From the IMG/VR virus record IMGVR_UViG_3300035520_000941: DNA of 64,000 nucleotides. One strand, written 5' to 3'. The stretch comes from an uncultured virus (IMG/VR IMGVR_UViG_3300035520_000941) (Duplodnaviria > Heunggongvirae > Uroviricota > Caudoviricetes). This document shows, piece after piece, positions 5,198 to 58,730 of the stretch. The notes below the pieces were generated by a model. That model ran no database searches and was not told where the DNA came from. It worked only from the letters and a program-made list of their open reading frames with translations. The position numbers were made by a program, and so were the translations under genes. Each line of letters starts with the position of its first letter. The stretch's first letter is position 1.

Positions 5198-5218
5198 TTA
5201 CATATATATAATAAAATC

Positions 5219-5362: not shown

Positions 5363-5372
5363 AGTTTTATTG

Positions 5373-5408
5373 AAAATGGTGTGATAAATAGTCACACTAT
5401 TTTATTTT
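5373..5408 (+). terminator. Intrinsic terminator-like hairpin between Y-RNA-like elements and Ro60
   Basis: AAAATGGTGTGA/TCACACTATTTT stem followed by U-rich tail. Confidence 0.55.
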
Positions 5409-5438
5409 ACCTAAAAATAGCAAAAAAGGAGAACAAAA

Positions 5439-27238: not shown

Positions 27239-27277
27239 ATTTGTTTTCTCCTTTTTGTATAATTAAAATCAATATTA

Positions 27278-27862
27278 TTAATCAACTAAACTACCACTAC
27301 TTGTTCCTAACAAAGCATTAATACTAGTTGTTTTTCCAGTCTGCATACCAACAACTTTATATGTTGCAGTATCACCAGAATAATCTGGACGTACATAGTA
27401 GAATTCATCACTTACTAATGTAGCACTTTGTGTTAATTCTTGTAATCCTTCTGGCTCTTGCCCAGTTGCTGTAATACCACTTACTTTAATTTTGTAAGCA
27501 ATTCCCCAACCTAATTTTTCAGGAGTAGAAGTCATGTTTTCTCTTTCTTCATAAACCCAAATTTCTTTATTAACATATTTTAATTGGTTTTCGATTGTTG
27601 TAGGGTGCATTAATAATGTATATTCAATTTCGCTTGCAGGGAATAAACCACTAACGTTTTCTTCACGAATTGAATTGATAACATTTGCCTCTACTGTATT
27701 TTGTGCATCTCCTAAGTCTGGTGTACTTCTTACACCTAATACAACATCATCTAAGTCGCTAGGCACTACGTCTACACCCATATACATACGATGACCGACA
27801 ACGGCACTACCTAATTGTGATGTTGTATCATCAGCGAATAATTGTAAATTTAATTTAAACAT
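27278..27862 (-). CDS. Major tail (tube) protein
   Basis: Synteny; VRSTPDLG motif; N-terminal LNLQLFA leader. Confidence 0.75.
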   Translation of the reverse strand: MFKLNLQLFADDTTSQLGSAVVGHRMYMGVDVVPSDLDDVVLGVRSTPDLGDAQNTVEANVINSIREENVSGLFPASEIEYTLLMHPTTIENQLKYVNKEIWVYEERENMTSTPEKLGWGIAYKIKVSGITATGQEPEGLQELTQSATLVSDEFYYVRPDYSGDTATYKVVGMQTGKTTSINALLGTSSGSLVD

Positions 27863-27877
27863 ATAGTTTTCTCCTTT

Positions 27878-28288
27878 CTAAATTCTTCTTTCAAATTCAC
27901 CACTCAATAAGTTATAACCAATCTTATAACTTATATCTATCTGGTATTTGTCATAATTAGCGTTCTTGTACGGCATTGATGGTTGACTTCTTGTAAATCC
28001 CATTTCAAGCATACAAGTTGTAACGTCAAATTCTAAGTCCATTAAATCACTTTGATATTCTTCTAACATACTCATTGTAATTGTAATTGTAGTTGTTAAT
28101 TCATTTTGGTAAATATCATATTTATTAGGACTATCATTTATATTTACTATAATTAAAGGGAACTTGGCTTTATCTTTTGGAAAATCATATTTAACATTGC
28201 CGTCTAATCTTTCAATTTTTTCCCTTAATTTAGGAATAACAACTTGCTTTAAGATTAAGTTTCGGTAATTAATTCTTTTCAATTCCAT
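27878..28288 (-). CDS. Tail terminator / tail completion protein
   Basis: Synteny; KFPLII...MGFTR. Confidence 0.6.
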   Translation of the reverse strand: MELKRINYRNLILKQVVIPKLREKIERLDGNVKYDFPKDKAKFPLIIVNINDSPNKYDIYQNELTTTITITMSMLEEYQSDLMDLEFDVTTCMLEMGFTRSQPSMPYKNANYDKYQIDISYKIGYNLLSGEFERRI

Positions 28289-28294
28289 ATAATC

Positions 28295-28765
28295 TTACCC
28301 CGTTCCCCTTGATATAAATTCTCTGTATCTTTCTCTTGCTATAGATATATCCCTAGGATATGCTATTGTTAAAGCATCTTCTAAGAACTTATGTGCTTTT
28401 TGACCTTTCCAATGGTAATAACCTTGACTATCTGGCGTATATCCATATTTACTCATTTTACTTTCAACTAAAGTTGGACTATCTTTAGAAGTTTTCCAAC
28501 TTCCATTTGTACCATAGTAATAATAGCCTAAATAATCAATCCCCTCACCTGCAGAAAGTTTTACAGATGAATAACTACCAGAATTTAATGTAGTTATTCT
28601 ATGTGAATTTGCTAAATCACCACCATTACTACTAATGGTATCTCGTGATACTGTCATTGTATATTGTGCCATTTCAGTTAGCAAAACCACTAAACTTTGA
28701 GTAGATAATTGTTTCATTTTATTCAAATTATTTACTACATTTGTTGAGTCAATAGTAACATTCAT
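28295..28765 (-). CDS. HK97 gp10-like neck protein
   Basis: GDLANS...YYYYGT...KGQKAHKFLEDA. Confidence 0.65.
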   Translation of the reverse strand: MNVTIDSTNVVNNLNKMKQLSTQSLVVLLTEMAQYTMTVSRDTISSNGGDLANSHRITTLNSGSYSSVKLSAGEGIDYLGYYYYGTNGSWKTSKDSPTLVESKMSKYGYTPDSQGYYHWKGQKAHKFLEDALTIAYPRDISIARERYREFISRGTG

Positions 28766-28778
28766 ATATTATCACCCA

Positions 28779-29126
28779 CTAAACTTGTTTTTCAGCCTCA
28801 AATATATATTGTTTTCCAAAGTGAGTTAATGGTTTTGAAATATATGGTGGATTTTTATATAATCCATCCTTTTCATCAACTTGTGGCTCATCAAAATAAA
28901 TACCATCTCCGCCGTCATAATCAATATCAATAGGGGCATTACTACTAAACTTGTAAATTCTGTTTATTTTTTCCCCATATGTTTTATAATCAATATAACC
29001 AGTAGCAGGTACACAATGTATATTTATTTTTCTAAGCCTTGTATAGCCAGTAATTCTAATTTCACCATCATCACTTTTGATTGGTGAAACAATCCATATA
29101 TTCCTTTTATCATTTGTTCTTGCCAT
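28779..29126 (-). CDS. Head closure protein
   Basis: Synteny; PATG...YGE. Confidence 0.55.
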   Translation of the reverse strand: MARTNDKRNIWIVSPIKSDDGEIRITGYTRLRKINIHCVPATGYIDYKTYGEKINRIYKFSSNAPIDIDYDGGDGIYFDEPQVDEKDGLYKNPPYISKPLTHFGKQYIFEAEKQV

Positions 29127-29130
29127 TGTA

Positions 29131-29475
29131 TTAACTCCAATATCCTAGAAATGCTCTAGGGTTTCTTTTTCCCCTAACTTTATTTCTAATGCTTTCTTCA
29201 ATATCTTTATATGAATAAGATGTGCTTACACTTAATTCACTTCTACTTGCCATTCCCTCGTTCCCTTGACGTTGGCAACTTTCAACAGTTGCACTTAAAA
29301 CATAAGGAATAAACTCGGTTGGCAATTCTTTATAGCAAGTTTCAGTACATACAATTTTAGCATATGTATTAACATATAACTTTATACTTTCATCTGTAAT
29401 GTTGCAATCGTCACCAAGCACTGTTTTCACATCACTTATTAATTGCTCGATATCTTGATTTTCCATAATTATCAA
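29131..29475 (-). CDS. Head-tail connector (SPP1 gp15-like)
   Basis: ELP...RQGNEGMASRSE..VSTSYS. Confidence 0.8.
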   Translation of the reverse strand: MIIMENQDIEQLISDVKTVLGDDCNITDESIKLYVNTYAKIVCTETCYKELPTEFIPYVLSATVESCQRQGNEGMASRSELSVSTSYSYKDIEESIRNKVRGKRNPRAFLGYWS

Positions 29476-29483
29476 CTCGATTT

Positions 29484-29798
29484 TTATTCAATATTATCTA
29501 ACTCTAACCCAACATCTAATAAATCACTTTCATTAAATTCTTTATCTTGTTGTTTGTTAGATTTCTTTGTTGTTTTTGTTTTCTTTGCAACATCTGTATT
29601 TTCTTTTTTTAATAATCCATCATTCCTATTTTTTCTTTTTGATTGAAATTGCTTAACTTCATCGGCATTTTCTACATATTCTTCAACAATGCCAACTAAT
29701 TCTTGCGGAATTTCTTTTACATTAAGGTCGAAAGGTACATTAGGAGCGTACCTTTCACCATTGAATTTAATTCTTGTTTTTTTTGAAATTAATTTCAT
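29484..29798 (-). CDS. Hypothetical virion-morphogenesis protein
   Basis: IKFNGERYAPN motif; directly after capsid gene. Confidence 0.55.
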   Translation of the reverse strand: MKLISKKTRIKFNGERYAPNVPFDLNVKEIPQELVGIVEEYVENADEVKQFQSKRKNRNDGLLKKENTDVAKKTKTTKKSNKQQDKEFNESDLLDVGLELDNIE

Positions 29799-29804
29799 AA
29801 CAAA

Positions 29805-30887
29805 TTAAATAACCTTTGCTTGGAATACTTCGTTATAAGCAGGGAATGATGGAATAAATACAGACTCTGCTTTAGTAACTGTTCTTACTGGGTCATCTTC
29901 ATCACGTACTGTTACATGAATATTTCCAAATGAAACATCTTCCATAGTTCCTTTGACACGGCGAATTTCAGTAGGTGTAGCACCATACATTCCATTTCCT
30001 AAATTGTCATCTGGGAACATTACAAATTTATCTTCTGGGAAGAAACGTTCTTTTGTTTGTTTTCCAGTTTCATCTTCTTTACGATATTTTGCATCATATG
30101 TAGCGATAACTGGTAAATCATTCATTTCCATAAAGTTGTTTAATTCATCTAATGTAATTGCTTTACCTTGATAGTTTTCACCATTTACAGAAATTTGAAT
30201 GTTTTTGTTCTTTTGTAATAATCTTAAGATTTTTAATGAAGTTAATGCTCTTGTTGGTCTAACTCCAGTATCATCGACAATTTTGTCACTCCATTCTTGG
30301 ATATCTCCTAATGGGTCTGAATTTTCTGTATCACTCCATTTATCAGTTTCAGTAGTGATAGTTTCTTTATGTTCATCTGGTACACTATAATCAAAAGTGT
30401 ATTTTACGTTGTTTTCATCTACAACGATTTCACCATTAGCAAGAACGTCCATTTTCATTCTTTCTGCTCTAGTTTTAACGGCTAACATCATATTTCTAGC
30501 ATCATCAAAAATTTGTTTTAATGTTTCGTTATATTCAACCTTTGAACGTGGTTGATTTAAGATTAACATTAATTTTTCGTTAATTCTAACTTGTCTTTTA
30601 ATTAAAATCTTTTCAAATTCAAAACTTTCAAATCCATCTCTGCTTGCAACTTGTGTTTTTGTATCAAATGAATGAACACTTGCAGAAACTGGTAATAAAT
30701 TTTTATTTGCAACGAATACGGCTGTCAAAGAAGAAGTTTTTACATCTGGAAATAATGTATCACCTAAAAAATCTGGTAATTGAATATTTCTAGCATAATT
30801 TAACATTTCTTTGTCGCTTAATTCTTGGATTGCAGACTCAATGCTTGCGAACATTTGAATATCTAAATTATATTTATATTTTTCCAT
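29805..30887 (-). CDS. Major capsid protein (lambda gpE-like family)
   Basis: 360 aa, LFP, RAE.M...L.NG, WSD..SDPLGDI, PSFP; leader LDIQMFA. Confidence 0.9.
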   Translation of the reverse strand: MEKYKYNLDIQMFASIESAIQELSDKEMLNYARNIQLPDFLGDTLFPDVKTSSLTAVFVANKNLLPVSASVHSFDTKTQVASRDGFESFEFEKILIKRQVRINEKLMLILNQPRSKVEYNETLKQIFDDARNMMLAVKTRAERMKMDVLANGEIVVDENNVKYTFDYSVPDEHKETITTETDKWSDTENSDPLGDIQEWSDKIVDDTGVRPTRALTSLKILRLLQKNKNIQISVNGENYQGKAITLDELNNFMEMNDLPVIATYDAKYRKEDETGKQTKERFFPEDKFVMFPDDNLGNGMYGATPTEIRRVKGTMEDVSFGNIHVTVRDEDDPVRTVTKAESVFIPSFPAYNEVFQAKVI

Positions 30888-30929
30888 ATTTTACACACTT
30901 TACCTTTCTTAAAATTTTTTTAATTAATA

Positions 30930-31265
30930 TTATTCAGCGGTATTATCAGTATAGAAGTAAATACCTTTTTCATTTAATGCTTTCTTAACTTCATCAGTAA
31001 GTTCTTGTGGTAATCTACTTTCAATAACCGCACCTCTAACTAAAAGTGAACCTGCTGTATCACCATCAGTTACATCAACATCTCTTAAAACAATACCAAT
31101 AGCATCTGTACTATTTGTTGGATATAAAGTACCGCTTTTTAATACTTTTTTACCCTCATCATTGACATCACCTGCATATTGTTGTTTAAATGTATGTGAA
31201 TATTCAACATCAGTAAAATCTTTAAGCCAGTTTACATCGGCTTCACCAATAACGTATTTTTTCAT
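30930..31265 (-). CDS. Head decoration protein
   Basis: GKKVLKSGT...AIGIVLRDVDVTDGD...G.V.ESRLP. Confidence 0.75.
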   Translation of the reverse strand: MKKYVIGEADVNWLKDFTDVEYSHTFKQQYAGDVNDEGKKVLKSGTLYPTNSTDAIGIVLRDVDVTDGDTAGSLLVRGAVIESRLPQELTDEVKKALNEKGIYFYTDNTAE

Positions 31266-31298
31266 GCTTTCATTTTTCCTTTCTTAAATTTTTAATGA

Positions 31299-32021
31299 TT
31301 AGTAACTTTTCCCCCAACCTTTAGATGTGTTGTTTCTTGAAGTTTCTAATTCATTATTTTGTTGTTTGATAAAATAATCACTTGCAAAAGAAGAACCATT
31401 TCCGTCACCATTTTTAGGTGGGTTTTGTTTCAAACTTTCTTTAAGAACGCTTGCTTTTGTATCTTCAATTATTTCTTTGTAAGCATTATAAACAGTTATT
31501 TTATCTTCTTCGCTTAATTCAGCAATGAAAGGGGCAATCTTAGTAGAGAAAATATCTCGTCTAGGTAAGTTATCTTCGTCATATTGAGTCATAATAACTT
31601 CTTTTGCTTGAGAAATTTTAATAACTTTTAATTGTTCGTTTAATTGTTCTTCTCTCTGTCTAAGTTCTTCTTCCTTTTCTTGTCTTAAACGTTCTTGCTT
31701 TTGTTCTTCGGTCATGCTTTCAAAAGATTTTTGCCTTTCTTGTTCTTGCTTGATTTTTTCATCATGTTCTTTTAATGCTTGGGCAATCAATACAGACATA
31801 TTCTCTTGTGCTTTCTTTTCAGCCTCTTGTCTAGCCTTTTCTCTTTCTCTTTCAAGTCGGCTTTCTAATTGACTAGGACTTAAAGTAACTGTTTTATCTT
31901 GCTTTTCTCCTACTTTGTTTTCTGCTGTTGAATTTTCACCACCATTATCACCATCAGTAACATCTTCGGCGAATAACTGAATATCCAACATAAAAACGTG
32001 ATTTAATAATTTTTCTTTCAT
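31299..32021 (-). CDS. Capsid scaffolding protein
   Basis: Coiled coil, MTEEQK motif, leader LDIQLFA. Confidence 0.85.
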   Translation of the reverse strand: MKEKLLNHVFMLDIQLFAEDVTDGDNGGENSTAENKVGEKQDKTVTLSPSQLESRLEREREKARQEAEKKAQENMSVLIAQALKEHDEKIKQEQERQKSFESMTEEQKQERLRQEKEEELRQREEQLNEQLKVIKISQAKEVIMTQYDEDNLPRRDIFSTKIAPFIAELSEEDKITVYNAYKEIIEDTKASVLKESLKQNPPKNGDGNGSSFASDYFIKQQNNELETSRNNTSKGWGKSY

Positions 32022-32191
32022 AAATAATCTCCTTTTTTATAGTCTTTGTTGACTTTTATAGCCTTGCATAGTTTATACACATAAGCATGTTTTGGTGGTA
32101 AAATACAGACTTTGATAAAAATAAAAAAGTACCAAACAAAAGTTAAAGACAACGTTTATTCTTTAAAATTTATTTGATACTCTAGGTATTC

Positions 32192-32317
32192 TTATTTTAC
32201 ATCAACAATCTTTTTACAACGTCCACATTTAATTTGAATACCATATATAGTTGTTTTTTCTAAATACTTAAATAAAAGTTTTCCACAATGTGGGCATTGA
32301 TACTTTAAATATATCAT
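32192..32317 (-). CDS. Mu Com-like zinc-ribbon protein (41 aa, below ORF-track cutoff)
   Basis: CPHCGKLLFK...IQIKCGRCKK; start codon uncertain. Confidence 0.7.
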   Translation of the reverse strand: MIYLKYQCPHCGKLLFKYLEKTTIYGIQIKCGRCKKIVDVK

Positions 32318-32377
32318 ATCATTTTTTTTGCTATTTGCAATACTTTTTTGATAATTTTTTATCATAATGACACCTTT

Positions 32378-33190
32378 TTATAATATTTCTTCATCATAAG
32401 GAACATAATAACATCTACAAAAATCGTGAATAATGACATCTGGTGCATCATTAATATCATAAATTTCTCCATCAAGCATTTCACATTCTTTACAAGTCCT
32501 ATCATCTAATTCTGCAACTCTTATCACTTTTTCAATACCTAAATCCTTGTATAATTCCATTTGACTTAAATTAACAACATTAGTAAATATATTATCAATT
32601 AGATTGGCATATTTCTTTTTTTGCATTTTGTACACTAATAAAAGTGGTATGCTATTCATATTTAGAATTTTATCTTTGCTTTTTTCTTGTTGCATATTTT
32701 CGTTTAATCCATTGCTTATACGATATGCCAAATATTGCGATTGCATTTTTAAATCATCATTATATGATGTTCGCAAGCCCAATATAAACAACGTATTCCA
32801 TAATTCAATCATTTTCTTCTTTATTTTCTTTGCTTTGAATTTTTGTATTTTCTCATCATCTTCATATATTTCTTTTAATTCATTTAAAGCAAATTCATAA
32901 CTATTATTAGCAACATCAACAAGATAAGTTATAGTCAAATTGTTCAATTCATCAAAATATAATACATTAGATTGTTTTTCAAATAGTGATTGTTCAAACT
33001 TGATATCTTTATAATTGATTTTTTTATCTTTTTGTTTTTGAATTTCTTTGTTTAATTGTTCCTTTGCAATCTTTTTGAATTTGAATTTTGATTTTTCAAA
33101 TATGAGATTTTCTTTTTCCATTAATTCTTTTAATTTCTTGTCGCTGTACTCAAAACGCTTGCTATCCCATTTTCTATCCATTATCTTCAT
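32378..33190 (-). CDS. Minor head protein (SPP1 gp7/MuF-like)
   Basis: AELDDRTCKECEMLDG...HDFCRC. Confidence 0.85.
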   Translation of the reverse strand: MKIMDRKWDSKRFEYSDKKLKELMEKENLIFEKSKFKFKKIAKEQLNKEIQKQKDKKINYKDIKFEQSLFEKQSNVLYFDELNNLTITYLVDVANNSYEFALNELKEIYEDDEKIQKFKAKKIKKKMIELWNTLFILGLRTSYNDDLKMQSQYLAYRISNGLNENMQQEKSKDKILNMNSIPLLLVYKMQKKKYANLIDNIFTNVVNLSQMELYKDLGIEKVIRVAELDDRTCKECEMLDGEIYDINDAPDVIIHDFCRCYYVPYDEEIL

Positions 33191-34904
33191 CTACTTTTTT
33201 ATTTTTATTTTTGTTGTTGACTTTTAAATTGCTCGTATTTTTAACTTTTTTTGTGTCTTTTGTATCTTTCGCATTGTCTTTATCTTTTGAATTACTGTTT
33301 TTATCATCAGTATCATTGTTAGCATTTTCATCTTCATCTTCATTTTCATCATCATTATTTTTAACATCGTTTTGATTGTCAATTTTATTGTTAGGATTGT
33401 CGCTTACCATATCTTTATTTGTTGCCTCTGCTAAAATTTCAGCAACTTTTGCATCTAATTTCGCTTGTCTTATTTGGTCTGCCTCATAATCCTTAATCAT
33501 TTGTTTAGGGTCTGTAACAAAACTTAATTCTTCATAAATCTTTTCTAATGGTAATATTTCTCTTGCTTGATTTACAAAGTTTAATTCTTCGTTTGTATTT
33601 GTAGGCAAGTTTCTAAACATAGTCAAGTCGATATTTCGCCAATTGTAATTTTTTCTTTCTGTTGCATTTAACAATTGAGCAATAATTTTATTTCTTCTTC
33701 TCATTGCATCTTTGAATATTTCTTCATATTCACTCATTTTTGTTTCTAATCCATACAACTTAAATACCAATGATAAAGTATTTTGATAAACAGCACTATC
33801 ATTTTCTGGATTGAATAATCCTGCAACCCCATAAATATCATTTTTAAGATTATCTTTATGTGATTGATTTACTCCGTCATTAACTTGCTTAGTCAACCAT
33901 TTAGCCTCTCCACCATCTTCACTATTTCCAGTAAAAATAACTCCTTGTGTTTTATAACGATTGATAACGTCATTAATTTCATCTTCACTTTCACCATTCA
34001 TGAACATGACACCACTAATCATTAAGATAGCATCATCATTATAATTTAATATCTTTTTAGTGTTGTTTGTAACTAATTCATAACCTCTAATTTCACTTAC
34101 TTGTTGTTCAAATAAACCTAAACCATAAGGCATTTCAATAGCAACAATAGGTATTTCCCAATCGTCCATAAAAGGCTTAACATTTCCTTTATAAAGTGGG
34201 TGTTCTTTAACATATCCATCTTCACTTGAATAATAAACTCTTTTAAAATGTGTATAAAGTTCAATGATTGTATATTCTTCATAACTCCATACACCATTAT
34301 CAAGTCTTTGTTTAGTGCTTTTATATTGTCGCATGAACCCAATTGTTGAACTTTCTATATCATCACTTTTTATTAATGCACAATGACCTCTAAGCATTTT
34401 ATATCTAATATCACCATATTCATTAGTATAAATCAATTCATATGCTTTTGATGTGATAAATGCTTGTCGTGTCAATCTTATATTTTCTTTTTGGTCGTGA
34501 TTTAAATCTTGTATATCTGCTAAAATGTTTAAAAATTCATCATTTTCCTTTTGACTATCAGTATTTTTAACATCTTTTTTGAAAGTTACTTCTTTTTCCA
34601 CACCAAATAAAGTTTTCTTTTTAGCAACTGTTTCTTTTTCTTTGTTATAATATGTTGGTTTTTTACCAATAACATAACCTACAGCAACATCAGTAATATA
34701 TTTTTCATAAGCACATATAATATCCATTTTTGTTGGGTCTGTTACGTTTCGCATTTCTTTTAATTCTCTTGAACGTGTATAGCGTTCCAACAAATAATCT
34801 TGTCTAATAAATTCTTCTAGCATTTGTGACATAATTTGACTACATATGTTTCCATCTAGTTTTTTCGTATCTTCAATAGACATTCTAATCTCGTTTATAG
34901 CCAT
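33174..34904 (-). CDS. Portal protein (SPP1 gp6-like)
   Basis: YITDVAVGYVIG, AYELIY, AKWLTK, F.RNLP; follows TerL. Confidence 0.85.
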   Translation of the reverse strand: MAINEIRMSIEDTKKLDGNICSQIMSQMLEEFIRQDYLLERYTRSRELKEMRNVTDPTKMDIICAYEKYITDVAVGYVIGKKPTYYNKEKETVAKKKTLFGVEKEVTFKKDVKNTDSQKENDEFLNILADIQDLNHDQKENIRLTRQAFITSKAYELIYTNEYGDIRYKMLRGHCALIKSDDIESSTIGFMRQYKSTKQRLDNGVWSYEEYTIIELYTHFKRVYYSSEDGYVKEHPLYKGNVKPFMDDWEIPIVAIEMPYGLGLFEQQVSEIRGYELVTNNTKKILNYNDDAILMISGVMFMNGESEDEINDVINRYKTQGVIFTGNSEDGGEAKWLTKQVNDGVNQSHKDNLKNDIYGVAGLFNPENDSAVYQNTLSLVFKLYGLETKMSEYEEIFKDAMRRRNKIIAQLLNATERKNYNWRNIDLTMFRNLPTNTNEELNFVNQAREILPLEKIYEELSFVTDPKQMIKDYEADQIRQAKLDAKVAEILAEATNKDMVSDNPNNKIDNQNDVKNNDDENEDEDENANNDTDDKNSNSKDKDNAKDTKDTKKVKNTSNLKVNNKNKNKKVDEDNG

Positions 34905-34923
34905 TATAAATCCTCCCTCTTTT

Positions 34924-36765
34924 TTATCTTCTATATGGGTCTATATTTGTTTTAACACTTGAATTTTTGATTATATCATAAGAATAAGCATATCTTAAAG
35001 CATCACAATTTTTGACAACCATTCCATTTGCAATATAATTATGATATTTTTCAACATTCATATTGTATACATCTTGTTTATCTTTCTCTTTGTGAATATC
35101 TTTTACTTTTGATGTTGATTTATACATATTGTTATCAACAATAATAACAACATCATTATTATTTATATCAATCAATTCTTTAAATCCATTTTCTGTTAAA
35201 ACTGGGTGATTATATGTTCCTCTTAAAACACTCCCATTTTCTAATTCCAATCTATAAATTTCAGCGTTTTTTTGTGTGAGTGTTACACCATTAAAACATG
35301 AAAACATAAGTTCTTTTCTTTCTAAATCATAACAATAACACATGCCAGTTTTACCCAACAAATTTTTTATAGGATAATCCCCGTAAAAAGTCTTGACAAT
35401 TGTATCACCAGTTAGGCACAAGTGATTGTATTTGTCAATTGGTATTTCTATAGGCTCACCATATTTATTTGTTTTCCATACATAATTTTCTAATTCAAAT
35501 TGCATTTCTTTGCAAGTCTTATCAACTACTATTCTAAAACCTCTTAGCCAGTCAATACCAACTTTAACAGAGTTTTTACCTTTTCTTGCTCTATATGGAT
35601 TAGCCCCACATTCTCTTAATTGCTTTATCATATCTTCGTTTCTATCACAAATGATAGGGTAACTACCAACTTTGCTCCTTATTTGTGTCCATAACTCGGC
35701 TATGCTTATTTCATTCATTTTAAATTCATCAAATATATAAATCGTTTTATTTTTCATATCTAATGAAGTTTTTATATAAGCATGCTCATCAATTGCACCA
35801 CCAAAGTCAAGCCCGTTTCTAAGTATTTTGAAGTCTTTAATCTTATCAGATAAATCTTCAACAAACCAATTCTTGCCTTTTTGATAAACTGTTTTACCTA
35901 AAGAACCCCAATTTCCATTAACATAAACTTCTCTTTGTACTGGGTCTTTTGTGTTTTCTAGTTTAATAATATCGTCTACTGATAAAAATTTATTATCACG
36001 ATAAGTCGTTTTTAAAATGCAAAATGTTTCAACTCCAGTTTCTCTAGTAATTTTTCCGTAATCGTCCATTACATCATATTGCACTTTTTCTTCATAATGT
36101 ACTTCCCTATCATTATCTTCAAAGTGGCTTATGAAAAATCTCTTGAATATCCAATGTGACTTATCAATAGGGTTGAACATCAATGTTGTTCTTTTTGGTA
36201 ATATTTCTTTTGTTTCTTGTTTACCATTTTTCTTATAGCAAATCCCCCTTTGACGTATTCTTAATTGCTCAAAGTCTTTTTCCTTTGTTTCTGTTGCCTC
36301 TTCCACAATTACATCGGTAAATGTTCCGTCTAAAGGTACTATTGACTTGACACTTTCAATATCATCAAGACCAATGAATAATATTTGTCGATTGTTCTCT
36401 TTGCACGTTATAGACATAGGGTTCTTCTTGCATATAAATTTATCTTGCAATCCAAAATCATTTATTTTTCTTAATAATTCTGTATATACAGAGTTTTCTA
36501 GTGTGTTTTTCTTTTGTCGTGCTATTAAAAAATTTCTGCCTTGTAGCCATACATCAAGTATCGTTCTTTGAAATATAAAATGTGACTTACCACTTGAACC
36601 ACCACCAAAGAATATTTGAACATTTGTATTGTCAAATAAAAATCTTCTATAAGGTTCGTTTATTTGTTCCCAAGTAATCCCACCTATTATAATCCCAAGA
36701 CTATTTTTTAAAGCAACTATATAATCTTGTTCATTTTGACTTAATCTTTTATTGCTTGTTGTCAT
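34924..36765 (-). CDS. terL: Terminase large subunit (PBSX-like) containing an intein
   Basis: Walker A GGGSSGKS, IVEEATE, MFNP, GLDFG, NHL/CDALRY. Confidence 0.95.
   Translation of the reverse strand: MTTSNKRLSQNEQDYIVALKNSLGIIIGGITWEQINEPYRRFLFDNTNVQIFFGGGSSGKSHFIFQRTILDVWLQGRNFLIARQKKNTLENSVYTELLRKINDFGLQDKFICKKNPMSITCKENNRQILFIGLDDIESVKSIVPLDGTFTDVIVEEATETKEKDFEQLRIRQRGICYKKNGKQETKEILPKRTTLMFNPIDKSHWIFKRFFISHFEDNDREVHYEEKVQYDVMDDYGKITRETGVETFCILKTTYRDNKFLSVDDIIKLENTKDPVQREVYVNGNWGSLGKTVYQKGKNWFVEDLSDKIKDFKILRNGLDFGGAIDEHAYIKTSLDMKNKTIYIFDEFKMNEISIAELWTQIRSKVGSYPIICDRNEDMIKQLRECGANPYRARKGKNSVKVGIDWLRGFRIVVDKTCKEMQFELENYVWKTNKYGEPIEIPIDKYNHLCLTGDTIVKTFYGDYPIKNLLGKTGMCYCYDLERKELMFSCFNGVTLTQKNAEIYRLELENGSVLRGTYNHPVLTENGFKELIDINNNDVVIIVDNNMYKSTSKVKDIHKEKDKQDVYNMNVEKYHNYIANGMVVKNCDALRYAYSYDIIKNSSVKTNIDPYRR
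35008..35418 (-). mobile_element. 137-aa mini-intein in TerL
   Basis: CLTGDT start, TYNHPV block B, DVYNMNVEKYHNYIANGMVVKN|C end; no endonuclease domain. Confidence 0.9.
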
Positions 36766-40112: not shown

Positions 40113-40766
40113 ATGAATGAAAATCAAGAATGGAAAAAGATTAATGGTAAAGACTTTGGATTATTTTTAGGGGATAATGAATACTTTATTTCTAATAATG
40201 GTGATGTATGGAGTGAAAAAAGCCAAAGAATATTAAAAAGAAGTATGAACAATAACAAACAAACTGTAGCAATCACAACAAAGAACGGGAAATATACAGA
40301 AACAAAACATTTATATGTTCATATATTATTGTATTTCTACTTTGTAGAAAAATATGACAAAAGCAAATATTCTATAGGCTTTAAAGATAATGATAGTCAA
40401 AACGTCACTATAGAAAACCTAATCAAAGAAGAAAAATACAGTGGTAGCAAGGAAACAGAAAGAAGAAACAAAATAAGCCTTGCAAATACTGGCAAAAAAA
40501 GAACAAAAAGACAAAAAAGATATATGAGCAAGAGAAAAAAAGAAACAATCACCCAAGAAACAAGAGATAAGATATCTCAATCAAGAATGGGTGCAAACAA
40601 TCCAAAGGCAAAGAAAGTTATAAAAAAGGATTTAAAAGGTAAGATTGTAGAAATCTATGATACTTGTAGAATTGCTGAAGATATGAACAACTTTGCTAGA
40701 AACACATTATCTTCAAAATGTAGAATGAATGCTCAATATAAAGGGTTTATATGGAGTTATAAATAA
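40113..40766 (+). CDS. NUMOD4/degenerate HNH/NUMOD3 homing-endonuclease-like protein
   Basis: EWKKI..Y.ISNNG.V.S, FKDNDSQNVTIENL, ETRDKISQSRMG repeats. Confidence 0.7.
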   Translation: MNENQEWKKINGKDFGLFLGDNEYFISNNGDVWSEKSQRILKRSMNNNKQTVAITTKNGKYTETKHLYVHILLYFYFVEKYDKSKYSIGFKDNDSQNVTIENLIKEEKYSGSKETERRNKISLANTGKKRTKRQKRYMSKRKKETITQETRDKISQSRMGANNPKAKKVIKKDLKGKIVEIYDTCRIAEDMNNFARNTLSSKCRMNAQYKGFIWSYK

Positions 40767-41773: not shown

Positions 41774-42280
41774 TGTAAAATAAAATAAAAAAAGACTAAG
41801 CAATACCAGTACTATGCTTAATCTATTAACTATTATACTTAAAATGTTATAAAAGTCAATAGAATAATTCAAATATTGGAGGAATTGCTTAAAAAAGTTA
41901 TTTCTTTTATTTTTTACTTCAAAATCTAATATAATGCTTGATGAGGGTATCTATGAAAATATGTTACTAGAATAGGCAAGTTGTGTTGTAAACCGAGGCA
42001 CATTTTCAAATTTCGGTCGTGTTCATATTCGTCATAGTGGAATTGGGATATGACATAAGGTCAAAGTGAAATCTACGTCACACCACTGAATAAGTAGGGG
42101 AGGAAATGCTTGGTATCGTGAGATACGGCGAGTCACAACGTTTAGTTTATGGGCAAGTATATTAATGTGACCCTACACTCATTCGACGACTTACTGCGAC
42201 GAAAGAGAATAAAGACCCTTTTTTCTAGGGTCTTTTTCTATCCTCTTCTCTAACTCCAACTCTGAAAGAGTTGGGGTTTT
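41774..42280 (+). ncRNA. ~500-nt structured non-coding transcript (candidate replication primer RNA)
   Basis: TTGATA-17-TACAAT promoter; GC-richer than flanks; many helices, GUGA and GAAA tetraloop hairpins; no ORF. Confidence 0.6.
41785..41826 (-). ncRNA. ~40-nt antisense countertranscript to the 5' end of the 41774 RNA
   Basis: TTGACT-16-TATAAT (41832-41859); AGATTAAGCA/TGCTTAGTCT stem + U7. Confidence 0.65.
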
Positions 42281-42455: not shown

Positions 42456-42512
42456 TACAAAAAAACGCAAATTTTGGTATTTACTTTTGCGAAAATGGGG
42501 GCATGGTTAAAT

Positions 42513-43112
42513 ATGAAATATTACGCTGTTATTAATGGTAGAGAAACGGGCATTTTTCTAACATGGGAAGATTGCAAAAAGCAAGTATATAAATTCCCAA
42601 ATCCTATATACAAGTCGTTTTTGACTAGGGAACAAGCAGAGGATTATATAAAAGAATATGGCAAAGATAAAACGACAATCATAAATTTGAAAGATACTTT
42701 AGTGGCATATGTTGACGGTAGTTTCAATAACAAAACTAGGGTATACGGCTATGGCTGTGTTTTGATATATAATGATGAAATAGTCGAAAAATTGAGTGGC
42801 AATGGAAACAACAAGGAATATGCAAGCATGCAGAATGTTGCAGGTGAAGTCCTAGCAAGCCTAAAAGCCACGGAATATGCTATAAAGCATGGTTATAAGT
42901 CCCTTATGATATATTATGACTACATTGGTATAGAATATTGGGTGACGGGGCAATGGAAAGCCAAAAAGCAAGGCACAATTGAGTATAAAGCCACAATGAA
43001 CGCTTATAAGAATTTCTTGAAAATAAATTTTGGAAAAATAAAGGCTCACACTGGCGATAAATATAATGAAATGGCAGATGAATTGGCAAAAATGGGTAGT
43101 GGTGTGATGTGA
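42513..43112 (+). CDS. rnhA: Ribonuclease HI with N-terminal hybrid-binding (viroplasmin-like) domain
   Basis: YYAV..GR..GIF.TW..C..QV; YVDGS, NVAGE, YYDY.GI, KAHTGDKYNEMADELAK. Confidence 0.95.
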   Translation: MKYYAVINGRETGIFLTWEDCKKQVYKFPNPIYKSFLTREQAEDYIKEYGKDKTTIINLKDTLVAYVDGSFNNKTRVYGYGCVLIYNDEIVEKLSGNGNNKEYASMQNVAGEVLASLKATEYAIKHGYKSLMIYYDYIGIEYWVTGQWKAKKQGTIEYKATMNAYKNFLKINFGKIKAHTGDKYNEMADELAKMGSGVM

Positions 43113-44568: not shown

Positions 44569-44616
44569 ATAGTTCGTACACGAACAATCTAATCGCGAGG
44601 GTCTGGAAGTGTCATT

Positions 44617-45310
44617 TTATCCAAAAATATATAATATATAATATATAATATATAATACATTATATAAAACAATATAAATAACTATATAATTATTATATAT
44701 ATAATAATAGTACATATAATACATATAATACATATAAGAATATATACATATATATAATATATTACTACATGTTATATATGTTGCTATATATATAGTAATA
44801 AGATACATATATACCCTATATATACATACATATTATATATAATAGTATTAAATACTATATAATAAAGTTCATTATATTACATATGAATATATCCAGATAT
44901 ATATAGAATATATATAACTCTACATATAATATAAAGCAATATATAATATAGTATGTAATACTACATAATATATATACAATTATATGCCATATATAAGCAT
45001 ATATTATATATTGGAATATTGCATATAATAATATATGTAGTAATATAACATATTATCATATATAAAATATGTCGTAAAATATAATAGTATATAAAATAGA
45101 CTATTATATAAACAAATATAATTGATTATATAATATGGTGTATTTAATCATATATTTAATTTTACAACATATATAAATAAACGATATATATTATAATGCT
45201 ATATATTCAAAAAAGCATATACATATAAAAATGGTTATACATATACTTTTTATACCTATTTAAAAAACATGATACAAATATATGAAAAGTACCATACTTT
45301 TATATATAAA
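44617..45310. other. ~700-bp TA-rich non-coding tract
   Basis: Dominated by TATA/ATAT; no credible ORF. Confidence 0.6.
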
Positions 45311-45509: not shown

Positions 45510-46500
45510 TTAATCATCACCTCTTTCCATTTCAAAAATATAAAACATTATATCTTCAATTTTCAAAATATGTAGTTGATAGAGCAATTTAATTACTCTA
45601 TCTTTCAAAATAGCAAAATTCAAAATAACCACTTACAACATTTAATGAAGTAAATAATCTTTCTTGCATATTATTGCATAAAATTAAATTTTCATTTTTA
45701 ACTAATTCAGCATAACTAATTCTTTTAACTTTCATTTTTCCATCCTCTTCTTTCTAGCGATTTCTACCGCTTTTCTATAATACAATCTTATACTATATAC
45801 TGTATAAAGTCAACACTTTTCTAACAAATATTAAAAAAAATAATTTTTTATCACTGTGATAAAATTTTTAAACGAAAAATCACCAATTTTACCAATTTTT
45901 AGGAATTTCATAATAGATTATGTGATTTTAGGATTTTGACAAATAGTCAAAAATTCAAAAAAGCCTTATTATATCTATATTTTTTTAATTTTGTACCCTT
46001 AAAGTGGTAAAAAATCATCACATATTTTTTTCGGCTCAGACTAAAAAATGCGTATAATCGTTGTTTGGAGTTTTTAGGTATTATTTATCACGGAATAGAA
46101 AAAACGCCTTAGAACGCAAATTTAAGCTATTTAGAGCTATATTGGTATATTGCCGACTTTTTGACATTGCTTAAAATTGAAATATGGGCTATTTTTTGAA
46201 AACTACATAAAACAGAAAGGAAAACCATGATAAACAATATCAATATAACGCTATGTAGTATTGAATACTACATATAGATTTGATAGAAAATTATCACATT
46301 GATAATATTTATAAATCGTAAAAATTAAATATCACAATGCAAACAATATATCAAAGTGACTTGAAAATATCACGGCTATAAAAATATATCAATATGATAC
46401 AAACGTATCACGCTTAAAAGAATATATCACGATTATATATTTTTATTTGGATAATATTTTTTTATTACGCTAAGAAATGAAAAAAAAGACTAGATAAAAT

Positions 46501-47089: not shown

Positions 47090-47408
47090 CTTTCAAATCC
47101 TCCTCATCTATTTCTATACTACCATTATATACTTTTTGAAGTATATTACAAGCATTTTCTTAAATTTTCATAAAATGAAAATGTAACAAGTTTTTATCAT
47201 TGTAATAATTATTTTTATCTTGCATTATATGATTGTATGTACTATCATAATAATGATGTATATTTAGGATTTGAACAATCCAAACAAAATTTATAGTACT
47301 ATGTTATATAGTTTCCAATACAATATTATGTAGTTTTGAATACTACATAAAATGTTAATGGATACTACATCATGGAACATCAACACCACATAAAGTGGTA
47401 TCGAAAAC

Positions 47409-47629
47409 CCGTGGAAGTAGTTACAAGTACCGTGGCATGAGTTACAAGCAGTGGGGGAAGTTACAAGCAGTGGGGGAAGTTACAAGCAGTGGGGGAAGTT
47501 ACAACTCTATAGGCATGCGAAAAGTGAAAGGAAATGTTGCAAGCCCATAGGGAGCGAGAGAGTGAAAGGAAATGTTGCAATTCTGCCGTACAAAATGTTG
47601 CAACTTGTACTTTACAAATGAGTTGCAAG
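47409..47629 (+). repeat. Iteron-like array with GTTRCAA core (9 copies)
   Basis: 3 x AGTTACAAGCAGTGGGGGA (47440-47496), 2 x AGTGAAAGGAAATGTTGCAA, further single cores. Confidence 0.85.
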
Positions 47630-47728
47630 TGATATAATAGGGAGTGCATGGAATGGACAAAATAGGCGAAAACCTATCACACATGCAATATCATCATGGA
47701 AAAAGAGCCTAAATTTATAGACTCTTTT

Positions 47729-47968: not shown

Positions 47969-48030
47969 AAAAATTCAATCCTTTCTTTTTAAATTTTCTA
48001 ATTTTCAAAATCATAAATAGTGAAAATATA

Positions 48031-48156
48031 TAAGTATCACTTACGACCAGTATTTGACACGATTATATAAGTATCACTTACAATCACTCTATAACACATA
48101 CATGCGTAAGTATCACTTACTTTTTTAACACGCATGCACACATAAGTATCACTTAC
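48031..48156. repeat. Four exact copies of 14-bp TAAGTATCACTTAC
   Basis: Starts 48031, 48068, 48107, 48143; quasi-palindrome TAAGT-ATC-ACTTA. Confidence 0.9.
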
Positions 48157-48421
48157 ATTTTGTGCGATATAAAGCGATTTATTTATAAATAAAGCATAAC
48201 ACAATCTGGTTTTAAATTAAATAAAAAAGAGCAATAAATGAATATTGCCCTATTAAAATATATAAACCATAGAATAATGTCATATATGCCCTTAAAATGC
48301 GTTTTTAAAGCGTTTCAAGACACTTTGTAATATATCTTGAATAAATTATAGCATACTTATAAATATTCGTTAGAACGCAAATTTAAAGCAAATAACATTA
48401 TACATATTAAAACTCTTTGTT

Positions 48422-49065: not shown

Positions 49066-49704
49066 GTGAAGAATAACACTAGATTTATTAAATCAGTTAT
49101 TGTGATAGGCTTTTTATTTACAACAATAAGATTTAATACAGTAAGCACTTTTGGAGATTATGAATTAAATGATGTAGAAAGAAATAATTATGTAGAAGAA
49201 ACAATAAGTATTGAAAGTGCAAAAGAAGTTACAATAACCAAGCCAAAGATTGAGTTAAAAAAGATAAGCCTTAAAAAGAAATTTAGTGGTGTGAATAAGA
49301 CTTATATGGATTTGAAATGTATTACCAACAAATCATCTAAACAATACAAGATGAAAAGCGATTACAAATTGGATAGCAAAGGACATTACTATATCAATTA
49401 TAAGGACGAAAAATTCTATGTTGTGGCTTTAGGAAATTATTTTGGTAAGATTGGAGATAAGTTTAAAATAACATTATCATCTGGAAAAACCTTTTATGCA
49501 ATTAAAGGTGATACGAAAAGCAATAGACACACAAAAGAGCGTTACGCTCATAAAACAGATGGAAGTGTTATAGAATTTATCATCAATACGAAAGTCGCTA
49601 AGAAATATTATGGGTCGAACAATGGGTATGTATGCAACGGAAATTTAAACAACAGCGACTTGTGGAATGGAAAAATCGTGAATATATCAAAAGTAATTGA
49701 ATAA
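49066..49704 (+). CDS. Secreted/membrane-anchored cell-wall-hydrolase-like protein
   Basis: N-terminal signal; TYMD, YVVALG.YF, GDKF.ITL, IKGDTK, GSVIEFI motifs. Confidence 0.5.
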   Translation: MKNNTRFIKSVIVIGFLFTTIRFNTVSTFGDYELNDVERNNYVEETISIESAKEVTITKPKIELKKISLKKKFSGVNKTYMDLKCITNKSSKQYKMKSDYKLDSKGHYYINYKDEKFYVVALGNYFGKIGDKFKITLSSGKTFYAIKGDTKSNRHTKERYAHKTDGSVIEFIINTKVAKKYYGSNNGYVCNGNLNNSDLWNGKIVNISKVIE

Positions 49705-49730
49705 ATAACAAAAAAACATTATAATAATAA

Positions 49731-49876
49731 TGTGTTATAAGGACTAATTTCATATTGACTTTTTCTTCTTTTTGTATATATTTTTGATTACCTTTATATT
49801 TTTCTGTTGTTTTCCATTTTCCATTTTTAACCTTATAACGCACATGAGATACACATTAATTTGTGTATCTTTTTTT
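49731..49876 (+). ncRNA. Candidate ~145-nt sRNA with 88-nt U-rich loop
   Basis: TTGAAT-17-TATAAT; 12-bp closing stem; AGATACACA/TGTGTATCT terminator. Confidence 0.65.
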
Positions 49877-49949
49877 AATGATTAAAAAAATTTGATATAA
49901 TTGTTAAAAAAGTGTTGACTTTTCATTTACAATAGTTTAACATTAAATT

Positions 49950-50347
49950 GTCAAAGGGAGTTACCTAAGACAAAACGATTGTAAGAGTGACAACTGTATT
50001 ACAATCTATGACAACAAGGATAGACTTGTCGGCTAGGGCTTGCAATAGGTCGTTAAAAGGTGTAGAGCAAGCGAACTTAACTGTGTTGTGAAAGTTGAGT
50101 TGCCGTAAATCGGTGGGAGTGAAAACGTAGTATATTTCCTAAACGGCAGGACGTTATAATGCTTATACATTCTAGTCACTGTATAAGATACGTTTGGATA
50201 AGAGCATTGATTACTAGGCACGTTATAAGATTGGAAATGCAAGTTAGTTGTTCTTGTAGACTAATACCAATTACGTTGTGAGGGCAAATAAAAAAACAAC
50301 CCATTATCGAATTAAGATACACAAATAAAAAATGTGTATCTTTTTTT
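49950..50347 (+). ncRNA. ~395-nt multi-helix non-coding RNA
   Basis: TTGACT-17-TAACAT promoter, terminator 50314-50347, at least 8 helices, no ORF. Confidence 0.7.
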
Positions 50348-50425
50348 GCTTATTTGTTAAAAAAGTGTTGACATATACCACAAAAAGTATTATCATATAG
50401 GTGTAGAAAGAAAGAGGGAAGAAAT

Positions 50426-52315
50426 ATGAGAAAAGAATTAGAAAAAGAATTAAATATCTTAGGTATCAGTTATGATACTATGAAACAGTTTAAAACTGGT
50501 GAAAAAGCAGATAAGAAATTGAAAGAAAGATATTTAAAAAAATTAGATGAATTGGAAAATTCATTTGATACATTACATAAATATCAAATTATCAGTGACA
50601 GAAAATATTATGAATACATTGATATGATTTACGATTTGAGTATGTATATATTAAATGATAAATAATAGAAAAGGAGAGATGAGTAATGGAAACAACAAGA
50701 CAAAAAATTGAAAGACTAGGTAGAGAATACTTAGAAGATGAAAATTATAAAAAGGGGTTTATCAGTTTAGAATGGGTTGAAAAATTAAATAAAGAATTAA
50801 ATTTAACAAAACTTAGCGATTTAGAATTGGCGAATATGTGGGATATGGTTTATCTAACATTAGACCACAAATTCAATTATTATGATGGTAATGAAAATTA
50901 TATAAACGCTATTAAATGGATGGATGTTAAATCAGCATTTGTTGAAGTAGTTAATAAAATAGCAAGAGAAAGAAGATAATCGAAACTAGCCAATGGCTAG
51001 TCCAACAGAGATGACCTACTGTTGCTGATGAGATAGGTTGAGAGGAGATAAAAAAATTATGAAAAAGAAAGAATTAATTAAAAGAATTAAAATTGAAGTT
51101 AGTGAATATTTTGAATATGATGATAGATTTATTGATGAATTTATCCGTTCATTTTCAAAAAACGAATTGAGGAAAATCAAAGAATTTAATTTCCACATGA
51201 AAGATTATGATGACTATTCAAGAAATAGTTGCATGGTTTTTCATGAAGATGATTATAATGATTTTAGAGTCGACTTTGAAGATTAAGGAGGAGAAGAAGA
51301 TGAAAAAAGTATTAATTGGTTTAAGTTTATTTATGATTTTATTGTGGGATAGTTTAGCACTACTTACTATTCAAAAAACAACAACAGAAAGCAAAAATAC
51401 AACTGTTGTTGAAGTGCTTGATTTGATGAGTGATGATGAAAACATTATCATCAAAGACAGCAACTTATGTATTATCTATAATGGTTCTGTAGGTAATACA
51501 AAAGAAGATTTATTCAATAAAGATGTTGATTGCTTAGGCACAAGTGATGATACAGAAATGACAACTTGTATCATAATTAAATAAAATTGAAAGTGAAAGT
51601 ATTTATGATGTTTTAAAAAATTTTAAAAAGGAGTTAAAAATATGAAAGTAATTGATTTGTTTGAAATGGTTGGAGAAAATACAAATATTGATTTAATCTT
51701 TAGCGAAAGTAATGAGGTTGTATCAAGATATGATGGAAGAAATAGCATTGATGAAGAATATAATGATAAAGAAGTTATTTCTTTCAATCCCAATTGGATT
51801 ACAAAAACATTAGAAGTGATTATTGAATTATAAGTAAGTAATACTTACTAAAAAACAAAGGAGATAGAAAAAATGGAAAAATATAAATTAACAAAATTTG
51901 ATTATGAGTTATTAAAAAGATTAACTGGTTGTTACATCGAAATAATTGATAAAGGGATTATTAAGGCATATGACAGATTTAACATATTTGAATTAAAATC
52001 ATCGGGCTTAAATCGTCTTAATAAATTACCGACATATAAATTATTGAAAGTTGATGATATTTTAAATAATTATATATTGGACTATGATTAATTGGAAAAG
52101 TGGTAAAGAAAATGAAATACAGATTTAGAATTAACAATTCACAAAAGGGAAAATATCTCCCAAGAATTAATGGACTTGTTGAAAATGTTGAAGTTTTAGA
52201 TAAAAATGAGATTTATATTACAACTATTGATATAACACAAAACCAGTTGCAAATGATACAAAAAATCTTTTTTGGAATTACAGATAGGTCAAAAAGATTT
52301 GAAGAAATAAAATAA
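50426..52315 (+). CDS. Run of small early hypothetical genes (50426-50665, 50686-50979, 51038-51286, 51300-51584, 51642-51833, 51873-52091, 52100-52315)
   Basis: Tightly packed ORFs with RBS after a TTGACA promoter at ~50368. Confidence 0.65.
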
Positions 52316-58046: not shown

Positions 58047-58730
58047 GTGAAAAGATATTATGTTTTAGACAAGAAAGATATTACAAATATTGTTGATGTT
58101 GGAGATAAGAAAACATTAATGAAAAAGTATAATTTTGAAGATGAAAAGAAGTTTATTTATGTAACAACTATAGGAACTGAATTTAATGGATATTATTTTA
58201 TTCCTACAGATGATGACAAGATACAAAGAGATGAGATGTTTGAGGACGTTTTATTTCATGTGAACGAAAAAGCAAATATTAAATATTATGTTAATTGCAA
58301 TGGCTTTTTCTTTTCTATTAATCAAAAAGGGCAAAAAAGAATGTTAAACCCGTGGTATGATAAAAGTTGCGATAAGTTGAAGTTAAAAATAGGCAAAAAA
58401 GGATATTATTGTGCCACGTTGATTGCTAAAACATTTAGAAAAGATGAATATAATGAAAAAGATATTATTTTGTATAAAGACAACAACCCCAAAAACTTAA
58501 ACTATAAGAATTTAGTTTTTGTAAGCAAAAGTTTCTTTGTAAACAATATTGCTAAAAGACATCCAAAAGCACGTAAATTAGGTGTATTTGATGAAAATAA
58601 TAATTTAATTAAACAATATGATAGTATCAGAAAAGCAAGTAAGGATTTATATGTTGATAGAAATTGCATTGTTGCAATCTTAAAAGGAAAAACTAAACAT
58701 AAAATGTTTGATATTAGATATATAGAATAA
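58047..58730 (+). CDS. Degenerate HNH / NUMOD1 protein
   Basis: LIAKTF, YKDNNPKN....NL, YDSIRKASKDL. Confidence 0.6.
   Translation: MKRYYVLDKKDITNIVDVGDKKTLMKKYNFEDEKKFIYVTTIGTEFNGYYFIPTDDDKIQRDEMFEDVLFHVNEKANIKYYVNCNGFFFSINQKGQKRMLNPWYDKSCDKLKLKIGKKGYYCATLIAKTFRKDEYNEKDIILYKDNNPKNLNYKNLVFVSKSFFVNNIAKRHPKARKLGVFDENNNLIKQYDSIRKASKDLYVDRNCIVAILKGKTKHKMFDIRYIE

Follow-up and report, generated by a model that had tools for sequence, protein, structure and literature searches.

Structured RNAs of phages are far less charted than phage proteins, and the few large ones that are known (GOLLD, ROOL, phage Y RNAs) pointed to unexpected biology. GOLLD and ROOL are large phage-associated RNAs of unknown function, both longer than the RNA considered here. 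Y RNAs are bound by Ro60 proteins. In phage T7, tandem early promoters head an early region with a structured leader that is processed by RNase III. Y RNAs are described as RNAs of 80-130 nt whose genes share a strand with the Ro60 gene and lie at most about 4 kb from it; their 5' and 3' ends pair as a long stem, and the internal loop is large (PMC4201824). The 5' strand of the stem bears a GNCGAAN0-1G (CGAA) motif, and a tRNA-like module is described as frequent (PMC4201824, PMC12135203). YrlA-like RNAs are reported for 22 phages (PMC4201824), and the Ro60 of a Thermus phage is described with two upstream Y-like RNAs (PMC12135203). A different arrangement is given by the promoter-early stem-loop (PeSL) cassettes of T4-type phages, in which a strong sigma-70-like promoter and a terminator stem-loop are repeated to either side of small, non-essential cargo (PMC2839356, PMC4122927). 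PeSLs are described as flanking small ORFs and as occurring in many copies in hyperplastic regions, with presence/absence polymorphism (PMC2839356).

The locus described here belongs to an uncultured low-GC tailed phage of the animal gut. The window, i.e. the whole stretch of DNA that was analysed (64,000 nucleotides), holds most of its genome, which we estimate at about 74 kb because a contig of 73,643 bases carries a protein of the same phage. For the terminase, the nearest matches are those of Clostridium and Marinitoga phages (about 41% identity). The nearest phage record (G001) is the same phage and spans positions 1-26573 of the window plus 6.2 kb beyond. Between a gene-poor regulatory stretch and the early genes lies a transcription unit at 49915-50347 on the plus strand, directly ahead of the early genes, which are followed by replication genes for a clamp-like protein, a DnaB-like helicase, a DnaD-like loader and a methylase. 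The features of the surroundings and of the unit itself are as follows.

About 9-40 kb, minus strand: structural and lysis genes.
About 40.8-49 kb: gene-poor regulatory stretch.
47400-47640: GC-rich gene-free island 2.3 kb upstream of the unit, a DNA repeat array of 19-nt iterons.
49846-49876, plus strand: terminator T1 at the end of the upstream 212-aa gene, 10-bp stem, 6-nt loop and T-run, found by the terminator scan.
49893-49901, plus strand: possible extra promoter P0, an exact match to the extended -10 word TGATATAAT.
49898-49943, plus strand: promoter P1, with a 22-nt motif (49898-49919), -35 TTGACT (49915-49920), 17-nt spacer and -10 TAACAT (49938-49943).
49950-50313, plus strand: body of the predicted non-coding RNA, GC 0.37, coding signal absent in all six frames.
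50314-50347, plus strand: terminator T2 at the end of the unit, hairpin 50314-50342 with a 10-bp stem, a 9-nt loop and U7.
50351-50396, plus strand: promoter P2 of the early operon, with the same 22-nt motif and TTGACA-17-TATCAT (50368-50396), consensus score 11/12.
50426-50665, plus strand: first early ORF, after P2, coding score +0.38.
From 50.4 kb, plus strand: block of small early genes, continuing into the replication genes.

We read the unit as an early RNA gene that stands alone and yields a non-coding transcript of about 370-440 nt, and we give this reading a probability of about one half. The unit probably encodes an orphan phage non-coding RNA, so far the single member of its family, on evidence that is compositional and thermodynamic only. 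The stretch at 40.8-49 kb contains much other non-coding DNA; a gene-free gap is therefore less remarkable here than it would be in a typical phage.

The first-pass annotation had given the unit a promoter and a terminator of its own, and both were found. P1 is a sigma-70-type promoter with a consensus score of 9/12 and a weak -10 hexamer (TAACAT), from which the RNA would start near 49950. P0, if used, would put the start near 49908; its word is at chance frequency in the AT-rich window (14 found, 12.3 expected). The T2 hairpin has a pair probability of 0.98, with G-C pairs at three of ten positions of its stem, and was missed by the terminator scan on account of its 9-nt loop. The 22-nt upstream part of P1 is repeated at 50351-50372 with 21 of 22 positions identical, and a 17-nt promoter core also stands on the minus strand (45809-45825, one mismatch) ahead of a small leftward gene. 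Altogether this core has four matches at three or fewer mismatches, where 0.74 are expected, a count equalled by none of 100 shuffles. From the promoter motif in common with the early operon, and from this only, we infer that the unit is expressed immediately on infection.

The terminators are duplicated as well, the last 15 nt of T2 (50333-50347) being identical to the 3' half of T1 with its T-run. Two terminator-promoter modules, 49846-49920 and 50314-50373, bracket the unit and have in common 15 nt of terminator and 21 of 22 nt of promoter. As in the PeSLs, to the extent that these are described in PMC2839356 and PMC4122927, a composite promoter and terminator motif is repeated on both sides of the cargo. 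The differences are that only two full modules occur in the 64 kb here, in place of many clustered copies, that the phage is not T4-type, and that the cargo is non-coding whereas the PeSLs flank small ORFs. By analogy with the PeSL cassettes as described (PMC2839356), the duplicated modules suggest that the cassette was probably gained, and can be lost again, by recombination between the flanking terminator-promoter repeats.

The unit stands out from its immediate surroundings in composition. The earlier statement that it is GC-richer than its flanks is borne out, with a GC content of 0.35-0.40 inside against 0.19-0.28 in the flanks, and its GC exceeds that of every neighbouring spacer. Coding potential was scored as codon-usage log-odds built from 31 genes of this phage, for which 213 in-frame gene windows give a reference of 0.416 +/- 0.113. 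Over six frames the unit scores -0.34 to -0.66, with 5-11 stops per frame, whereas the scores of six small early genes a little downstream lie at +0.17 to +0.47. The longest plus-strand ORFs in the unit have 34 and 40 aa and score -0.23 and -0.33; a Pfam search of five internal ORFs gave nothing meaningful. The unit codes for no protein.

Whether it is also "highly structured", as the first-pass annotation put it, depends on the standard of comparison. Against shuffled sequences the unit folds well (z = -2.85, a value that none of 100 shuffles equals); the opposite strand reaches z = -2.26. Against its own genome the description is overstated: in a regression of folding energy (MFE) on GC over 518 windows of 370 nt across the window, the unit deviates by only -1.76 sd. 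The overlapping window 49816-50185 deviates by -2.58 sd and ranks sixth on the plus strand, and several coding windows equal or exceed the unit in GC-corrected structure. With GC allowed for, the unit is no outlier in its own genome, and its overall structure is only moderately above chance. Strand asymmetry was discarded as evidence for an RNA, a difference of -23 kcal/mol being ordinary for the plus-strand block (mean -14.6, sd 8.75). This block is G-rich, and a folding advantage of plus over minus is typical throughout. TA-repeat tracts, which are not RNAs, give the strongest "structures" in the window.

The individual elements of the fold, all on the plus strand, are predicted as follows.

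49982-50012, plus strand: 5' arm of the closing stem, pairing with 50222-50256.
50222-50256, plus strand: 3' arm of the closing stem, with the second copy of ACGTTATAA at its inner end.
50014-50209, plus strand: multi-branch head of seven predicted hairpins, from partition-function pair probabilities.
50014-50029, plus strand: head hairpin, P 0.95.
50038-50072, plus strand: head hairpin, P 1.00.
50074-50101, plus strand: head hairpin, P 0.97.
50102-50114, plus strand: head hairpin, P 0.65.
50115-50139, plus strand: head hairpin, P 0.53.
50142-50155, plus strand: head hairpin, P 0.72.
50157-50209, plus strand: head hairpin, P 0.52.

The closing stem is imperfect, with 30 bp in five segments, six of them G-U pairs, and pair probabilities of 0.64-0.99; those of its core stay at 0.82-0.99 across six choices of the RNA ends. 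Its duplex energy of -24.4 kcal/mol is equalled by 4 of 1000 dinucleotide-shuffled versions of the 5' arm and by none of 202 arm pairs of equal size and spacing across the window. That such a long-range stem is improbable by chance is a well-founded conclusion. The best-supported predicted fold is hence an end-to-end stem that closes a head of seven hairpins, unlike the chain of consecutive helices proposed earlier. All eight complementary word pairs of that proposal are present in the sequence. As helices, two of the eight hold at P of at least 0.97 (GCTTGC/GCAAGC at 1.00, AACTTAAC/GTTGAGTT at 0.97) and two reach P 0.35-0.55, whereas the other four, at P 0.01 or less, are outcompeted by other hairpins and by the long-range stem. 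With pairing restricted to a maximal span of 60, the fold is 10 kcal/mol weaker (-85.3 versus -95.3 kcal/mol), and a chain of hairpins is therefore a close alternative in the model, one that could form first during transcription. The word ACGTTATAA, which had been noted as repeated, does occur twice, at 50151 and 50220; the repeat is not significant, because a repeated 9-mer is expected about 0.3 times in 400 nt.

Known RNA families do not account for the unit. None of the 4227 models of Rfam 15 matches anywhere in the whole window at gathering scores, and 49945-50320 has no match even at E<=10; these models cover, among others, group I and II introns, riboswitches and C4-type antisense RNAs. 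The same threshold applied to 49700-50450 gives two junk matches, both beyond the body, which score 15.9 and 14.6 bits where the cut-offs are 120 and 49. No tRNA or tmRNA gene is detected in the window by ARAGORN. The earlier failure to recognise a tmRNA, RNase P, 6S RNA or intron core is in line with these results. The unit resembles GOLLD and ROOL in being an independent phage transcription unit that is non-coding and GC-enriched and has multiple predicted hairpins. It differs from them in that their Rfam models do not match it and in that it does not lie beside tRNA genes, of which the window has none. The relation to GOLLD and ROOL is one of analogy only.

The position of the unit also allows a role in cis. 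P1, perhaps with P0, and P2 might be tandem early promoters, and read-through of T2 would then give the early operon a long folded 5' leader, in which the 30-bp stem might serve as an RNase III processing site or T2 as a regulated terminator. We consider such a leader unlikely, and these details of it equally so. It is true that the first early gene follows the unit directly, shares its strand and stands behind the same type of promoter, that the long imperfect duplex resembles double-strand processing sites such as those of the T7 early region, and that some read-through of T2 is plausible with G-C pairs at only 3/10 positions. The likeness to T7 extends to host-type promoters that head the early region and are followed by a long imperfect duplex. 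Here, however, a strong terminator (a 10-bp stem at P 0.98 with seven U) and a second full promoter stand between the folded RNA and the first gene, and with P2 in this place (11/12) the operon needs no upstream start. The motif's other two occurrences, at 50356 and, on the minus strand, at 45825, lead straight into genes with no such leader. Leaders of the riboswitch type have no further promoter before the regulated gene, whereas here P2 intervenes, and no riboswitch, T-box or leader model of Rfam 15 matches the unit at E<=10.

Relatives of the unit were sought in several collections, and none was found. Distant-mode blastn of 49840-50420 gave no match among 50,697 phage records or 72,556 plasmids, and scans of viral contigs with three neighbouring single proteins gave no relatives. 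The upstream 212-aa protein is secreted and belongs to a family with 19 relatives, of which the closest (52-57% identity) are on Logan/ENA contigs. An alignment of this family led to 43 viral loci, these being the loci compared, separate from the Logan/ENA contigs of the 52-57% relatives. Neither blastn nor nhmmer detected similarity to the RNA in the 43 loci; an ORF-free gap of at least 250 nt follows the match to the 212-aa protein in three of them, none GC-enriched. The whole records behind 40 of the 43 loci, i.e. all except the short contigs L015, L016 and L043, gave chance matches of 14-37 nt only, and three phage records that bear Ro60 gave a single 18-nt chance match. A single-sequence covariance model of the 120-nt core (50037-50156) matches itself at 152 bits and none of these 43 records, the 40 and the three with Ro60.

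Four exact-word scans were run with words from three parts of the RNA. RNA 17-mers occur in viral contigs at one and three chance loci. An exact copy of a 26-mer of the unit occurs neither in 185,579 species genomes nor in metagenomes, and an RNA 18-mer occurs at 17 metagenome loci with a GC content of 0.42-0.65, where the match is confined to the word itself. The promoter 17-mer is found at 36 loci in viral contigs, with alignment limited to the promoter motif; this word is common in AT-rich phages. An alignment scan of species genomes likewise gave no relatives of the unit. The first-pass annotation had suggested a new large RNA class and a collection of homologues; no second member came to light in the viral, metagenome, genome, phage and plasmid collections searched, and no homologue was found there, the 43 whole related phage records included. 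Several further leads within the phage were dropped. As an antisense RNA the unit has a best complementary match of 13 nt in the phage, matches to other GC-rich islands or to the Ro60 leader are 12 nt or shorter, and CsrA-type GGA motifs, a DnaA box (8/9) and an 8-nt repeat of a terminator arm are each within chance.

The lack of relatives is also what one expects of junk, and the unit might be a functionless remnant, either the decayed shell of a foreign gene or a MITE-like insertion, in a promoter-terminator slot at a hotspot of gene swapping. Its GC content is unlike that of the rest of the phage, direct repeats of the terminator-promoter module bracket it in the manner of the cassette slots described for T4-type phages (PMC2839356), and the arms 49982-50012 and 50222-50256 can be read as inverted terminal repeats. 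A decayed gene is opposed by the coding scores, which show no trace of a frame, and by the fragments, in which Pfam finds nothing. As to inverted repeats, 6 of the 30 pairs are G-U and would be mismatches in DNA, and the stem outperforms 996 of 1000 shuffles. MITEs exist in multiple copies, whereas the unit is a single copy in the 64-kb window (best off-diagonal match 13 nt) and its 26-nt word is absent as an exact match from the 185,579 species genomes and from metagenomes. A remnant does not appear to be a likely explanation.

A function at the level of DNA, whether as an array of protein-binding sites, as an attachment site or in replication or recombination, has less in its favour still and is quite improbable in our view. 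The GC-rich island at 47400-47640 is indeed an array of 19-nt iterons, and the unit is located between the regulatory hub and the replication genes. Direct or tandem repeats in the unit itself, however, are limited to one 9-mer; its promoter and terminator frame it on a single strand, and it contains no tRNA fragment. Among the proteins scanned, all encoded outside the structural genes at 26394-36765, there is no integrase, and neither a reverse transcriptase nor a Cas or TnpB partner.

If the unit is a stand-alone RNA gene, as we prefer, host RNA polymerase would transcribe it at the very start of infection, alongside the early genes. The majority of transcripts would end at T2 and be freed as a separate RNA, whose two ends would pair as the imperfect 30-bp stem and close the head of about seven hairpins. 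The RNA might then act in trans, as a stable scaffold or decoy that binds protein. Its head could bind an RNA-binding protein or nuclease of host or phage, and the long double-stranded stem could be a handle for a double-strand-specific protein, e.g. RNase III. This mechanism is weakly suggested by the predicted anatomy alone. If the RNA is real, an uncultured gut phage would devote its very first transcription unit to an RNA, not to a protein, and RNA genes could travel as promoter-RNA-terminator cassettes. As it stands, the unit is a single orphan sequence and a candidate rather than a discovery.

The only hint of expression comes from the sole public run with a piece of the locus, an animal gut metatranscriptome in which 10% of the sampled words of 49600-50700 are present. 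The run gives one contig of 156 nt (50099-50254, 100% identical, depth 2.8) that lies wholly inside the unit; the rest of the 1101-nt stretch is not covered in it, an absence that carries no weight. A random piece of 156 nt would land inside the unit about one time in four, and the contig is weak evidence of expression, with DNA carry-over possible.

A rather doubtful possibility is that the unit founds a new class of phage RNAs that are large and structured, with early host-type promoters, action in trans as scaffold or decoy, and residence in a mobile cassette. In a bolder variant of this proposal the RNA would be an atypical giant partner of a Ro60 protein. The phage does encode such a protein, and a second candidate RNA lies close to its gene.

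5097-5203: candidate Y-like RNA, in the 537-nt gap upstream of Ro60 and downstream of a promoter-like site.
5439-6890, plus strand: Ro60 protein of 483 aa with TROVE and Ro60-vWA domains (E 1.7e-35 and 4.8e-11).

The predicted shape of the unit, a long end-to-end stem that closes a large head, recalls that described for Y RNAs (PMC4201824), and the unit might accordingly be imagined as an oversized Y-like RNA. On the stem, the model gives 30 bp at P 0.64-0.99, with a fold of local hairpins within 10 kcal/mol. The 5' strand at the base of the stem is identical at 14 of 18 positions to the Ro-motif region of the Y-like candidate, yet such an identity is expected about 1.7 times by chance. In distance, length, CGAA motif and tRNA-like module the unit departs from the Y RNAs and YrlA as described. 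The Ro60 gene shares its strand but is 43 kb away instead of within 4 kb, and the unit measures 370+ nt against 80-130 nt. None of the nine GNCGAAN0-1G matches of the window (two pattern forms) falls in the unit, and the corresponding place reads ACGAUUG, with CGAU instead of CGAA. Neither the YrlA nor the Y_RNA model matches it at E<=10, and ARAGORN finds no tRNA-like gene. A partnership with Ro60 is most improbable on these grounds, the more so as a better candidate with CGAA sits immediately upstream of Ro60; a version in which the closing stem would hold Ro60 and the head recruit a second factor, in the way that Y RNAs link Ro60 to PNPase, is just as hard to credit.

The phage described here offers a compact candidate pair of Ro60 and Y-like RNA for study. 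The YrlA model has no match in G001. For the candidate at 5097-5203 the predicted fold consists of two stems stacked on each other, and CGAA stands on the 5' strand in the internal loop between them. The candidate has UUACUUCA in common with three units that precede the Ro60 gene in a related phage, and one of these three scores 37.9 bits with the YrlA model (E 4.5e-5).

The window phage carries a gene for an orthologue of Ro60, a protein that binds Y RNAs, and the gene is preceded by a gap of 537 nt (4902-5438). This gap holds a small unit ending in a terminator (~4963-5040) with a fold z of -3.14, z being the folding energy of a stretch relative to shuffles. A second stretch of the gap, at ~5097-5203, is a predicted Y-RNA-like candidate, in whose modelled fold CGAA sits in an internal loop flanked by two stems. 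No match to YrlA, the Y-RNA-like family of Rfam, was found in the Ro60-upstream region of the window phage. Repeated units lie 5' of the Ro60 gene in related Ro60 phages (loci L094 and L095), and the word UACUUC is common to these units and the candidate.

Ro60 gene of the window and repeated units of related phages
Window 5439-6890 (+), Ro60 orthologue with TROVE and Ro60 vWA domains
L094 2822-2924, repeated units 5' of Ro60
L094 2560-2800, repeated units 5' of Ro60
L095 2790-2960, repeated units 5' of Ro60

One L094 unit scores 37.9 bits against the YrlA model, under the cut-off of 69, and T- and D-arm-like parts are clear in it. In a further Ro60-bearing phage (L096) a phage-encoded tmRNA was detected at 1593-2117 (52.5 bits, cut-off 47), ~0.9 kb 5' of the Ro60 gene.

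Several gene-free or repetitive stretches were found elsewhere in the window.

Gene-free and repetitive stretches of the window
41935-42240, second gene-free island, GC-rich (0.41), longest ORF 34 aa
42280-42450 and 44600-45300, TA-repeat tracts of very low GC (0.11-0.16)
47406-47573, gene-free island, GC-rich (0.46)
48027-48161, four copies of a ~34-nt repeat between two minus-strand genes

The island with a GC content of 0.41 is closed by a bidirectional terminator hairpin (42207-42238) and may be another RNA gene, on either strand; its fold z is -0.55 on the plus and -2.79 on the minus strand, and Rfam gave no match for it. The most negative folding energies of the window belong to the TA-repeat tracts, which contain many long imperfect inverted repeats and are, despite these energies, low-complexity DNA. 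The more GC-rich island comprises five direct repeats of 19-22 nt with a spacing of 19 nt, together with two 38-nt repeats. Its repeats look like iterons, so the island may serve as an origin of replication or as a site for partition or packaging. Each ~34-nt copy contains the inverted word AAGT-N3-ACTT, and this array looks like an operator array.

Further genes of the window include three free-standing genes of homing-endonuclease type. Two of them are of the HNH kind, and the third, a GIY-YIG gene with NUMOD1, is located among tail genes.

Other genes of the window
24440-25369 (-), homing-endonuclease type
40113-40766 (+), homing-endonuclease type
58047-58730 (+), homing-endonuclease type
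42474-43112, RNase H1 carrying a hybrid-binding domain at its N terminus
3626-3937, Prp-type cysteine protease
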